DNA from: Dirinaria sp. TL-2023a
Lineage: Eukaryota
Assembly: GCA_051941275.1 (NCBI GenBank)
Contig: JAVEBF010000024.1
Span: 1-49,787 of the forward strand
DNA length: 49,787 bases
Reading direction: 5' to 3'
Shown: piece by piece, positions 29,106-33,035 of the stretch
Layout of the letters: each line of letters begins with the position of its first letter
Position numbering within the stretch: position 1 is the first letter of the stretch
Notes under the pieces: model-generated
Database searches by the model: none
Told to the model about the DNA's origin: nothing
The model's input: only the letters and a program-made list of their open reading frames with translations
Program-made: the position numbers and the translations under genes

Positions 29106-29858
29106 TCAATTTGACTCTCTTTCATTGCGATCGTTTACCCATTTTACTAATTGGTCCCATCGCCAACAAGAATGCGTGATTCCGAACCCGACTATACCAT
29201 TGAATTTTGGATCTTTAGTCTCAATGGTTCTATCTGCGTGACACATGATGCTTTGACGAAGGAACTCTATGCAATGAAGAACATGTTGAAGAGTGATTTT
29301 CTCCTGTTCCGGACTTTTCCCAGTAAGGAGAGCATCCCGAGAATCGTTCATCTCGTAAAAGCCTCTACGAAGGGTGTCCTAAGTCACGCAGTGAGATTTG
29401 TGGACTCAAAAATGACGGAGTACGTACAACGCAGTGCAGCTGATGAAACGCGGCGAAGCTGGATCTCTGAGGATTTCTGTCGGGGTAGTCGAAGAATCCA
29501 TTGTTTGAAGGGTAGAGCGAAGTCCATGCTAAATCAGAATCCCTAGACGGACGTTGTAGAAAGGTCCTGTTGGATTCGAATTGTACCGAGACTGGCTCCA
29601 CTGCCACAGAGTGAGCTCTGCTCTTATCCAATATCTATCACGACTAATCATCTTACAGTAGATTTCTGGTCCCGGGTGGAAAATGCTGGAATTTCCCAGA
29701 TAAAGACCAGCTATGAATGCAAGGCAGAGCACAGGCAAATAGAAAAGATGAATGTATTTGATCGAAATGAATCCGTAACCTTGTCGAACAAGATCTCCTT
29801 CGTATTTTCTTTCTGTCTCAACGCGACTGTATCCTCGGCTTGATGCACTGGGCCACAT
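29106..29858 (-). CDS. DUF3328 / UstYa-like oxidase (fungal RiPP cyclisation enzyme family)
   Basis: Exons 29858-29657, 29600-29428, 29378-29106. N-terminal TM helix, D.AW motif, two HxxHC motifs (FHQLHCV; HVLHCIEFLRQSIMCHAD), and C-terminal GFGITHSC. Confidence 0.9.
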
Positions 29859-29882
29859 TTTCAATGTCCTGAAACATTGAAT

Positions 29883-29898
29883 TGTGTGTGTGTGTGTG
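29883..29898. repeat. (TG)8 microsatellite just upstream of the DUF3328 gene
   Basis: tgtgtgtgtgtgtgtg read directly from the sequence. Confidence 0.8.
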
Positions 29899-31274
29899 AA
29901 GACGGTAAGCATTCGTCAGATGGAGTAGAGGAAGTCAATAGTCCGGGGAACGTGACCTTGCGTAAAGAATTGTATTTGTTGTAATATTTTATCTGTACGA
30001 CTAGCGCTCACTAGTCAGAGTCGAGAGTGCATAAAGATAGACTGCAAATACCTAATGACTGCATGCATAATGCATGCTTCGTATTAGTGTGGGAATGAAT
30101 TGCACAAATCGGTGTATTCCCTTCGGGTTGTGATCATACGTGTCAGGTGGATTACACTGTATTGTAATTGATTCCACTGGGCAATTGTCAGCGTATCAGA
30201 GACTTTTCGTTTCTGCTTTGTCATAATAAACCCATCAATCTGTTGAGATGAGAAAGGAGACACAGAGGATGCTAGAATAAGTTTCTAGCGTTCAAAGTTC
30301 CAAGAGCAATCAGATGTTTTTGCCACGTGCATTCTGACCGCTGTTGCATTCCTTTCAAGGTGTGACTTGAATAGGCAGCATTGCAGCATGCAGTTTCTAG
30401 AATGACAGATGAATATCGTGAATCGGGAACTGATTACGAAATGAGAACTTACGGTACGCAACTCCATCTCACATGCATGGACGCGATAATACACTGATGC
30501 GAGGTTGCTCTATTCCTGCAACACATGACTCTCATTGCGAACAACAAATGCAGAAGTCTCTGAAATGCATTATTGCAACGGTAGCGTTACTATCATTAAT
30601 ATTAAGGCTATCGAGTAGCACTTACGGAATCGCGGTCAATGTGCATACGCACGGAAATCGGTTGATAAGAAAATTGAAGAATATGCTGGAATTGACTTTC
30701 AAGTGACTTTGTCTCAGAACTCCACGCTTCCACTAGCTTAGCAGTACCGAGTGAGCTACGCCCAAACAAGCCGCGCAGCGCGTGGAACAGGGAGGGTCTT
30801 CCGACGACTTGTATCGATCTGCATACTCGACGTACCAATCCCACGCATCAGAGCCATCTTCCCCTCTCTAGAATACATTCTGTGACGCGGGAGGTGCACG
30901 TCGCCCAAATGGCACAGGTCACAGTAACTGGGTTCGGAGAAACAACCCTATGTGCTTCGACTGGACGAACTGTTTCTTGTGCAATGGCTGGACGAAGAAA
31001 GTAGCGCCGAATAGAGAATCGCTGATTTGGCAGTCACTCACACATCAATAGGTCATCCACACACGCACAAAGATCGAGCGCTGCTGCATCCGTTGCGTTG
31101 TCCGTTCGAGACGAATGGGTAGACCCCAAGAAATCATACACTCAAGCAGGAAGAGCTAGGTTATGGACACGTTCAAGATCTTCTATTGAATTGACGGCAC
31201 ATAAGCCTGAAATACAGTAACATTCGATCCATAACAGTCACAGTGAGCTCGTCTTCCATACGTCTCATACTCTC

Positions 31275-31593
31275 TCAATATTCTTCCGCATAGAACTTCT
31301 CATCGGGATAAACGATGGCCTCGTCCGCATCGTGAGGAGCTTTGCTAGTTGTCAGTTTGAGATTTCCCAGGTTTGTAAATCAGGGATTGGCCAACATCGT
31401 TTATACTCTTCAGCGTAGAATTTCTCGTCCGGATAGACAATCGCGTCATCGGCGTCACGAACCGCAAGAGCTGTGTCGATGTAAGTTGCGAGGCGTGTCT
31501 GATTCGATTTTCCGACTTGCCTTTAGAAGAGCTCAAAGGCACTGCAGCAACGCATGCAGTCAATGCGATGAGAAGGGTTTGAATAGGCTTCAT
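31275..31593 (-). CDS. Putative RiPP precursor / Kex2-processed repeat protein, 70 aa
   Basis: Exons 31593-31521, 31470-31396, 31339-31275 translate to MKPIQTLLIALTACVAAVPLSSSKALAVR-DADDAIVYPDEKFYAEEY-KR-SPH-DADEAIVYPDEKFYAEEY*. It has a signal-peptide-like N-terminus, two repeats and a KR site, and is flanked by two DUF3328 genes. Confidence 0.85.
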
Positions 31594-32204
31594 GATTCGT
31601 TTTTGCTTCGACGTTCTGATGGTCTCCAACTTAATGCTTTGGGGTCATATAGCGGTTCCGTTCTAGTTGAGCGAGTAAATTTGATCCGAAAACGAGCACT
31701 TCCAACTTCCAAGGTTGGTACTTGCCGACTATTTAGATGCCCGAGGGGTTCCTACGTTACGACTTGCTAGTTTTGAATTTTGATGTTGTAAGCGTGTGAA
31801 TCATTGCAGTAGGCAATGATTAACTCAAAATTCGTACTTCGGATGATCCTTCCCGAAAACATCTGTTATGCGGTGAAGCATGACAAGATGGCACTGTAGC
31901 TAGTCGGCGCCTGCATATAGAAGGAACAAGCGTAGAATGCGGGCATTGAGCACATTATCGAACGACCCTGTCTAGGATTCGGCATAGCAGAACAGTTGGC
32001 ATCGGCAGTCATGAGTGTGGTGCATAATTCTAACTAGCTGCATGTTCAAAGTCGGTGTGAAAGATCTACAGCAGCTGTACCGCTTTTAGACTTCCCCAAG
32101 CCTCTCAGCCGAGGTGCTGACTGTGGTCCAAATTGTCTCTTCTCTTCAGAGTCTGCTTGTCAATCTTTGTAGGCCAAGAAAACTCGGATATCACCGCCGC
32201 TGTA

Positions 32205-33035
32205 ATGCTGAGCAGCCAGAAGCATTATTCAGATGAAGCGGAGCTCCTTAGTGAAGAAAGATACAAAAAGCGGACTGCATCGGGAAGTGATTTCCCAGCA
32301 GCCAAATGTTGGTCTCGCGCAGTCATAATTCATATCGCCCTATTCTCGCTTTACGCCATCATAGGTTTTGTGGTCATCAAGACTCTGCGCCCTTCTTGTA
32401 GGCAGCCCGGAAAAGGTTGGTCGTTCAAAGATAGTAGCGCGTTGCAACAGCTCACACGATACTAGCCATCGCAGATCTTGTTGTCAGGTTTCAAACCCAA
32501 CAATCCATGGCTATGCATGAGAGTCCATATGCTGGAGCACCAGACGCCGAAATCGATGGAGCTTGGAAAACGTTATTGGCGGAAATGAACATCCGCGTCT
32601 CTAGGGATGAGTTGGCCCAACATGACCAAGACTCAATCCTACTTCCAACAGGAGGCCATCTTGCTTGGCTTGGGGTTTACCATCAGCTGCACTGCCTGGT
32701 GAGTGCGTATTTCTCTGATATGACATCTTATTGACCAGGAATGCCAGAAAATGCTTCGTCAACTCAACTATCGTGACTTCTACCACCCGAATATGACCCT
32801 TGCAGAATCAAGGGACTGGCAAGTTCATGCAGATCATTGTATTGAGTACCTTCGAGCTTCCGCATTATGCCATCCGGATTTCTCATCGCTGACAACCTTC
32901 ATCTGGGATAAGGAAAGCTCGAAGCCAATGTTGAGGAACGAGAGACCGGTACATCGATGTGTGGATTGGGATAGCCTTACGAAGTCACTTCGAGATCGAG
33001 CGGTGAAGGAACACGAGATCCAAAGCCTAAATTAG
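32205..33035 (+). CDS. DUF3328 / UstYa-like oxidase
   Basis: Exons 32205-32415, 32466-32698, 32748-33035. TM helix, SPYAGAP..EIDGAW, two HxxHC motifs (YHQLHCL; HADHCIEYLRASALCHPD), and C-terminal HRCVDWDSL. Confidence 0.92.

Follow-up and report, generated by a model that had tools for sequence, protein, structure and literature searches.

A two-repeat precursor gene flanked by two UstYa genes in Dirinaria sp. TL-2023a as the probable core of a conserved dikaritin-type peptide cluster

The stretch of DNA analysed here, hereafter the window, comprises 49,787 nucleotides of a contig of the fungus Dirinaria sp. TL-2023a (GCA_051941275.1, JAVEBF010000024.1, positions 1 to 49,787). Within it, a short intron-split gene for a repeat-bearing peptide precursor lies between two genes for oxidases of the UstYa (DUF3328) type. 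We consider this locus to be the core of a conserved fungal cluster for a peptide that is made on the ribosome and modified after translation (RiPP), of the dikaritin (ustiloxin-type) kind, with a probability of roughly 0.78. This reading is carried by the gene itself and its splicing pattern, by purifying selection on the encoded peptide, by the identity of both neighbours as UstYa genes and by the conserved linkage of the three, all of which were read from sequence. The locus probably belongs to a widely distributed peptide family of dikaritin kind.

The precursor gene occupies 31275..31593 on the minus strand and has 70 codons in three exons (31593-31521, 31470-31396 and 31339-31275; 213 nt in total, without internal stops), with the ATG at 31593 and the stop codon at 31277-31275. 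Intron 1 (31520-31471, 50 nt) is of GC-AG type with the donor GCAAGT, and intron 2 (31395-31340, 56 nt) is of GT-AG type with the donor GTTGGC. Both strands were read; the two repeats lie in separate frames and no stop-to-stop frame holds both, which is why the gene was missed by the open reading frame (ORF) track. The initial annotation had proposed a spliced 70-aa gene overlooked in this way, and the proposal stood up, with the exons, both repeats and the Lys-Arg (KR) pair in place and the same 70-codon reading in four related loci. We enumerated all pairs of GT or GC donors and AG acceptors that connect the ATG with the two repeats in a stop-free reading. This gave 16 models, and only in the one described above does donor 1 look consensus-like (AAG/GCAAGT).

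For the comparison of splicing, four related metagenomic loci (L005, L001, L006 and L010) were aligned with the precursor region of the window, and the exon limits of the window were applied to them. The 213-nt, 70-codon reading was present in 5/5 aligned sequences with the same intron positions. Gap columns against the related loci numbered 0 in exons, 1 in intron 1 and 9-10 in intron 2, and identity was 63-82% over exons versus 42-53% over introns. Donor 1 of the relatives is GTAACG or GTAGAG, exactly where the window has GCAAGT, and their donor 2 is GTAGGT or GTAAGT, compared with GTTGGC in the window; the acceptors (AG/CT) are conserved across all of them. Furthermore, the annotated Endocarpon pusillum protein P0013 is spliced to ‘KRS’, the same KR-S junction as in the window model, and 11 of the 34 family proteins introduced below run through the intron as ‘KRC’, because a phase-1 intron follows directly after KR. 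Comparison with relatives thus provides strong indirect support for the predicted three-exon gene.

The signal-peptide-like N-terminus (31534..31593, minus strand) has Lys at residue 2 and a hydrophobic stretch at residues 7-18, with a Kyte-Doolittle mean of 2.77; comparable N-termini occur in family members. Two near-identical 18-residue repeats with one KR between them make up the characteristic part of the peptide. Copy 1, DADDAIVYPDEKFYAEEY (18 codons, 31403..31456, minus strand), is followed by the KR codons at 31402-31397, and copy 2, DADEAIVYPDEKFYAEEY (18 codons, 31278..31331, minus strand), ends at the stop codon. The signal-like N-terminus, the two repeats and the KR spacer had all been anticipated and are present, the first as judged by its hydropathy. 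The copies differ in 13 of 54 bases, and 13/13 differences fall on the third base of a codon; 12 leave the residue unchanged and one exchanges D and E. The chance of such a distribution, if differences were random over codon positions, is ~6e-7, and we therefore conclude that both copies are read in these frames under purifying selection. The introns before the two repeat exons align weakly to each other, while the repeat exons align well. Among first-copy cores of six loci, the differing codons comprised 68 synonymous and 9 non-synonymous ones, and repeat pairs inside single loci followed the same mainly synonymous pattern. All invariant core residues are retained in both repeats of the window.

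Downstream of the precursor and on the same strand lies UstYa-A (215 aa; 29106..29858, minus strand; exons 29858-29657, 29600-29428 and 29378-29106), with a hydrophobic helix at residues 36-54 and the motifs HQLHC at 120 and HVLHC at 157. UstYa-B (243 aa; 32205..33035, plus strand; exons 32205-32415, 32466-32698 and 32748-33035) has its hydrophobic helix at 40-58, HQLHC at 143 and HADHC at 175. Both are intact three-exon models with GT-AG introns of 49-56 nt, and in both the HxxHC(x)nHxxHC signature is combined with an N-terminal hydrophobic helix, assigned from hydropathy, ahead of the catalytic domain; the two intact flanking genes with double HxxHC motifs described in the initial annotation are hereby confirmed. 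In Pfam, PF11807 was matched by exon 3 of UstYa-A (E 1e-16, 61.9 bits) and by exons of UstYa-B (E 1.7e-10, 41.6 bits, and E 9.2e-19, 68.6 bits), so both genes exceeded the curated cut-off of 25. The ATGs of the precursor and UstYa-B are separated by a divergent intergenic region of 611 bp (31594..32204), in good agreement with the ~610 bp estimated before; this spacer is presumed to be a bidirectional promoter, and the divergent arrangement is kept in related loci. The closest named relative of UstYa-B is a hypothetical protein of the lichen fungus Lobaria immixta (79% identity over 75% of the query), which makes a lichen-forming ascomycete the probable source of the window. It should be added that a (CA)n microsatellite is located at 29881-29898, just upstream of the UstYa-A ATG.

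Metagenome contigs scanned with the family alignment yielded 15 loci, L001-L015. Ten of them (L001-L010) are close relatives of the window with ~70% DNA identity; L001-L009 are near-identical, so that the 15 loci represent about five lineages, namely the L001-L009 group, L010, L011 with L014, L012 with L013, and L015. UstYa genes were detected by tblastn beside the precursor in 14/15 loci, and representative matches were confirmed by Pfam. The exception, L015, had no UstYa match and is a 2.4-kb contig holding only a five-repeat precursor. Linkage of precursor homologues to DUF3328 genes, which the initial annotation had proposed to test, was thus seen in all loci save this short contig. Where the flanks allow, there is always one A-type and one B-type UstYa gene beside the precursor, in the order UstYa-B (divergent), precursor, UstYa-A (same strand). 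A gene prediction of Cudoniella acicularis (P0010), in which the precursor is fused to an A-type UstYa, represents a sixth line of evidence for linkage.

In a maximum likelihood tree of the C-terminal exon of UstYa genes (19 rows, none dropped, no outgroup), the B clade (9 rows) was separated from a clade of A-type genes and a third paralogue (10 rows), each with 100/100 support and with long branches meeting at the split. This third UstYa paralogue (PF11807, E 1.5e-15) was found beyond UstYa-B in L001, L004-L007 and L009 (~7400-8100) and in L012 (967-1415), and what is probably a fragment of it lies at the L013 edge. The paralogue joins the A clade on a long branch, and tblastn revealed no counterpart of it in the window.

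The search for relatives of the precursor with the 56-residue frame of exon 2 gave no candidate among proteins of near length; an exhaustive HMMER search with that frame then found the family, with 23 proteins at E <= 0.001. We took in 16 of the 23 and left out the long repetitive proteins P0014, P0015, P0017, P0020 and P0024-P0026, assumed to be low-complexity matches. The 16 examined proteins are short and carry 1-4 copies of the repeat unit, several having clear signal-like N-termini. A later profile search returned 29 proteins. The repeat D-[DE]-x-[IV]-x-YPDEK[LF]YAE[ED][YF]-KR occurs in 34 of the 45 proteins gathered from all searches, and none of its bearers has an annotation beyond hypothetical, unnamed or uncharacterised. 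Named sources fall into six genera: Ciborinia camelliae, Cudoniella acicularis, Endocarpon pusillum, Periconia digitata, Pseudopithomyces chartarum and a Pyrenula metagenome bin. The core is therefore not peculiar to this genome; it recurs almost without change in a family whose members belong to several classes of fungi.

Within family alignments, Tyr, Pro, Glu, Tyr and Glu are invariant and Ala is invariant or nearly so; two of the core Tyr are invariant and the third position is Tyr or Phe. Counts over 51 distinct repeat instances, made at positions left free by the search pattern, gave Pro at position 2 in 50/51, Lys at 5 in 43/51, Leu or Phe at 6 in 49/51 and Ala at 8 in 46/51; ahead of the core, Asp at -5 was found in 51/51, Asp or Glu at -4 in 49/51 and Ile or Val at -2 in 49/51. 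Relatives carry 2-5 repeats. In the window, L001-L011, L015 and 11 of the 34 proteins, the stop codon comes right after the Tyr or Phe that closes the last repeat, which suggests that the mature C-terminus is probably that residue.

As for gene structure, the Dothideomycete members P0032 and P0035 (Periconia digitata and Pseudopithomyces chartarum) have all repeats in one uninterrupted frame, and the intron after KR is seen in Lecanoromycete-like members and the Endocarpon member. From this distribution, the intron is either old and was lost in Dothideomycetes, or was gained once in another branch. One further candidate, P0028, a response regulator of bacterial type (493 aa) whose tail is AraC-like, appeared in the 90% cluster of P0008, a 53-aa fungal precursor fragment, and was rejected as a clustering error. 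In the ESM Atlas, the best feature score for P0035 was 0.81, under the meaningful level, and the Atlas model had a mean predicted local distance difference test (pLDDT) of 0.43; a PDB sequence search with P0046 found no relative, the best match (E 0.27) being unrelated.

The surroundings of the three genes were analysed with Pfam. An O-methyltransferase gene (PF00891; approximately 25023..26703, plus strand; ORF pieces with E 2e-6 and 1e-14) is matched by orthologues next to the cassette of L005, L010 and L011, and a gene for a PF20684 ‘fungal rhodopsin’ membrane protein (approximately 23025..24172, minus strand; E 3.3e-14) has counterparts in L005, L011 and L013. In 4/4 lineages with enough flank (window, L005, L011 and L013), genes of both families are located no more than 8 kb from the precursor, in varied orders: B, precursor, A, O-methyltransferase and membrane protein in the window and L005; membrane protein, O-methyltransferase, B and precursor in L011; B, precursor, O-methyltransferase, A and membrane protein in L013. 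This co-occurrence does not fit the stripped-down three-gene system that the initial annotation had suggested. DNA synteny with L005 continues past UstYa-A into the O-methyltransferase gene and further. A second PF00891 O-methyltransferase (approximately 20011..21135, minus strand; E 1.9e-25) is a possible cluster member; it has orthologues in L005 (66%) and L013 (48%, between precursor and UstYa-A) while L011 showed none, and it accompanies the set in 3/4 lineages with enough flank. The L013 copy nearest to the first O-methyltransferase of the window is a weak fragment only.

Neither tyrosinase nor peptidase nor major facilitator superfamily (MFS) transporter was found by Pfam among ORFs of at least 75 aa in 21000-38400, in line with what had been reported for the immediate neighbourhood, and no tyrosinase was found either among the longer window-wide ORFs submitted to Pfam. 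Moreover, Pfam scans of the window, L005, L011, L012 and L013 gave no MFS, ABC or S41 matches near the cassette. The spacer between UstYa-A and the O-methyltransferase is ~2.4 kb in the window (26704-29105), compared with <0.2 kb in L005, and this 2.4-kb stretch had no Pfam matches; the spacer between precursor and UstYa-A (29859-31274) also appears longer in the window than in L005.

More distant from the cassette, a highly reducing polyketide synthase (HR-PKS) gene at 2772-10816 (plus strand), split over several ORFs, encodes ketosynthase (KS), acyltransferase (AT), dehydratase (DH), C-methyltransferase, enoylreductase (ER), ketoreductase (KR) and acyl carrier protein (ACP) domains. Beside it are a further O-methyltransferase (14025-14870, plus strand) and a cytochrome P450 fragment (~16824-17318, minus strand); together they are probably a polyketide cluster in its own right, located upstream of the peptide genes. 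Downstream, a second PF20684 gene (38369-39309, minus strand) and a DUF3533 membrane-protein gene (42522-43965, minus strand) were observed.

Among known systems, the closest in its manner of working would be that of asperipin-2a in Aspergillus flavus (precursor AprA, DUF3328 oxidase AprY, reductase AprR and transporter AprT). The locus has in common with it a putative signal peptide, repeats separated by KR, a core rich in Tyr, the small size of the cluster and the lack of a tyrosinase. In that pathway the DUF3328 enzyme AprY brings about macrocyclisation by ether links from Tyr side chains to beta-carbons (PMC6514808). The asperipin-2a core FYYTGY and FYAEEY here appear similar in their F-Y-x-x-x-Y spacing. 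However, asperipin-2a has one UstYa, in contrast to two from distinct clades here, and its repeat is 8 residues long, whereas the conserved unit here has 16 residues, is strongly acidic and is present in 2-5 repeats. A reductase or transporter such as those of asperipin-2a was not found at our locus, which, unlike asperipin-2a, has O-methyltransferases and a PF20684 membrane protein.

Ustiloxin (UstA, UstYa, UstYb, the tyrosinase UstQ and UstM) and phomopsin likewise combine a Kex2-processed repeat precursor with at least two DUF3328 genes and a methyltransferase, and their DUF3328 genes are needed for cyclisation through Tyr (PMC7329392). In contrast to these systems, the locus has two repeats instead of many and no tyrosinase was found in it; compared with ustiloxin, its methyltransferases are of PF00891 O-type, whereas UstM is an N-methyltransferase, and its core is not Y-x-I. 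In Parmeliaceae lichens, the Clan R1 DUF3328 clusters described by Pasinato and Singh (2025, PMC12048977) have two double-HxxHC DUF3328 genes and an O-methyltransferase, the latter between the two DUF3328 genes, as in L013. They also have a tyrosinase and an FGE-sulfatase, neither of which was found here, and identity of the two systems is no more than a lead. The same survey, of 111 lichen-forming fungal genomes, reports that repeat precursors were not found in DUF3328 clusters (PMC12048977).

Kex2-processed repeat proteins (KEPs; Umemura 2020, PMC7329392) have a signal peptide, repeats and KR sites, features also seen in the precursor described here, where the signal peptide is putative, and DUF3328 genes were reported near 22% of KEP genes, most often as the next gene (PMC7329392). 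The Endocarpon pusillum member ERF68234 is not in the KEP table of that paper, although the genome was surveyed; family members whose gene is split by introns and holds two repeats are missed by screens of KEP type. The core motif was absent from searchable paper text, with figures and most supplements outside the search, and within that scope the earlier statement that the core is not recognised among characterised dikaritins holds. The YPDEK string was also absent from the supplements of PMC7329392, where the table gives accessions and not sequences, and of PMC12048977. With regard to class assignment, DUF3328 beside the precursor, KR-separated tandem repeats, core Tyr and a methyltransferase are present, and tyrosinase and transporter or peptidase were not found among the ORFs scanned. 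A 2021 review treats DUF3328 as the class-defining dikaritin enzyme, and an older, five-gene definition of 2016 includes tyrosinase (both via PMC12048977); the cluster falls within the enzyme-based definition and, with no tyrosinase, peptidase or transporter found, outside the five-gene one.

Secretion, Kex2 cleavage, the residues modified and the manner of modification, methylation and any activity of the product belong to the inferred part of our reading. For the family, oxidation that depends on copper and O2 and takes place in the secretory pathway is established. The 70-residue precursor would enter the secretory pathway via its signal peptide and there meet two membrane-anchored, lumen-facing copper oxidases, of A-type and B-type. 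CctR, a DUF3328 enzyme, is membrane-anchored with a lumenal catalytic domain, forms a disulfide-linked dimer, holds two copper ions at its HxxHC motifs and needs O2 and electrons (PMC12435403); the same paper cites work in which the asperipin cyclase AprY likewise depended on copper and O2. UstYa-A and UstYa-B would each oxidise the conserved unit YPDEK[LF]YAE[ED][YF], and the likeliest reaction would be the formation of side-chain cross-links from the two invariant Tyr, as in the tyrosinase-free asperipin-2a pathway. A Kex2-type protease would cut after KR to release two peptide copies, each ending in the last Tyr or Phe, and one or two of the co-conserved O-methyltransferases would probably add methyl groups. 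The co-conserved seven-helix membrane protein may be counted as part of the set.

A fold prediction was made with two copies of the lumenal domain of the L011 B-type enzyme and the precursor P0008. It scored 0.47 against 0.00 for the best control, with contact agreement between runs of at least 68% and partner pLDDT of at least 54. In the calibration, which was made of single-chain pairs without peptide partners and hence is unlike a job of dimer plus peptide, 51 of 78 solved complexes came up to the mark, as did 2 of 108 mismatched pairs, and scores of <= 0.60 comprised only 5 of the 78 solved complexes and all 4 passing mismatches.

A number of observations weigh against the dikaritin-type reading. 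The modelled fold is a weak and small addition to its support. The site ahead of repeat 1 is a single Arg (AVR) rather than KR, and the window has two repeats only, as compared with the many of ustiloxin-type precursors in published accounts. Without a tyrosinase, S41 peptidase or transporter nearby, part of the 2016 cluster definition has no counterpart here. UstYa enzymes are also known to hydroxylate, halogenate, dehydrogenate and transacylate (PMC12048977, PMC12435403), which makes cross-linking one of several reactions, albeit the most likely. The co-occurrence of accessory genes comes from four lineages and could be plain retained synteny in the closer ones, and some of the tailoring genes could belong to the HR-PKS cluster 18-28 kb upstream. 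No RNA runs were listed for 29000-33100 of this DNA. Finally, intron 1 begins with a GC rather than a GT donor, and a CTAG lies five bases ahead of the frame-keeping AG of intron 2 as a competing acceptor. Use of this earlier acceptor would break the frame and swap repeat 2 for unrelated residues. On account of both sites, the gene in this genome could splice poorly or have lost its function not long ago.

These splice features lead to a rival explanation, in which the cluster is genuine in the relatives and the precursor is decaying here, its splicing blocked by the GC donor and the competing acceptor. The GC donor 1, the weak donor GTTGGC and the extra CTAG ahead of the intron 2 acceptor are indeed found only in the window, the competing AG being absent in L005. 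However, GCAAGT after AAG is the usual context of working GC-AG introns. The retention of invariant core residues in both repeats and the intactness of both UstYa genes also speak against decay, as do the codon differences between the window and L005 over two 16-codon units, 13 of which are synonymous and 3 non-synonymous, and we regard a decaying precursor as highly unlikely. Less probable still is that the UstYa, methyltransferase and membrane-protein genes serve the neighbouring HR-PKS, with the repeat gene as a bystander. DUF3328 proteins do occur in polyketide and nonribosomal peptide synthetase clusters, e.g. those of atpenin and astins (PMC12048977), and the window holds the HR-PKS with its O-methyltransferase and the P450 at ~16.8-17.3 kb. 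Yet no PKS domains were found among the scanned ORFs of at least 95 aa in L005 (32 of 43), L011 (19 of 21) and L013 (6 of 8), where the cassette is present, and across loci the UstYa genes follow the precursor and not the PKS.

Under a further rival explanation, the precursor would be a common type of secreted repeat protein, cut by Kex2 into linear, unmodified pheromone- or effector-like peptides, with the UstYa genes acting elsewhere. No modified product is known, 78% of 7878 KEPs have no nearby DUF3328 gene (PMC7329392), and the core is far more conserved than the typically highly diverse repeats of published accounts, which would suit a signalling peptide. Against it stand the persistence of UstYa-A and UstYa-B next to the precursor in all lineages whose flanks are long enough, despite changed gene order, and the 611-bp divergent spacer common to the precursor and UstYa-B, and we consider it unlikely, although somewhat less so than the two above.

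On the dikaritin-type reading, the wider meaning of the family can be outlined. We put forward with considerable reserve that filamentous ascomycetes may possess in it a peptide system of ancient origin, in which an acidic 11-residue Tyr core was kept near-unchanged over Leotiomycetes, Dothideomycetes, Eurotiomycetes and lichen-forming fungi, and that the family might be the ‘missing’ precursor of lichen DUF3328 clusters. If so, the conservation of the core, in a class whose cores are described as highly variable, would, along with the dedicated seven-helix partner, suggest an endogenous target that is itself conserved. The product could then be a modified peptide signal or a peptide for handling metal rather than a toxin, and the lichen precursor would have been hidden because each repeat can occupy its own small exon.

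Small proteins so far labelled ‘hypothetical’, together with read-through genes that had been predicted wrongly, can now be grouped as a defined RiPP family, with a core motif suitable for searches, two UstYa clades of its own and a set of accessory genes that recurs. Precursor detection is treated as an open problem in the 2025 lichen survey (PMC12048977), and one concrete route by which lichen DUF3328 precursors escape can now be named: a short gene with a phase-1 intron after KR and as few as two repeats. The near-invariant core offers a clear target for mass spectrometry, and the A/B oxidase pair is a test case for the division of work by two copper-dependent DUF3328 enzymes on one peptide.

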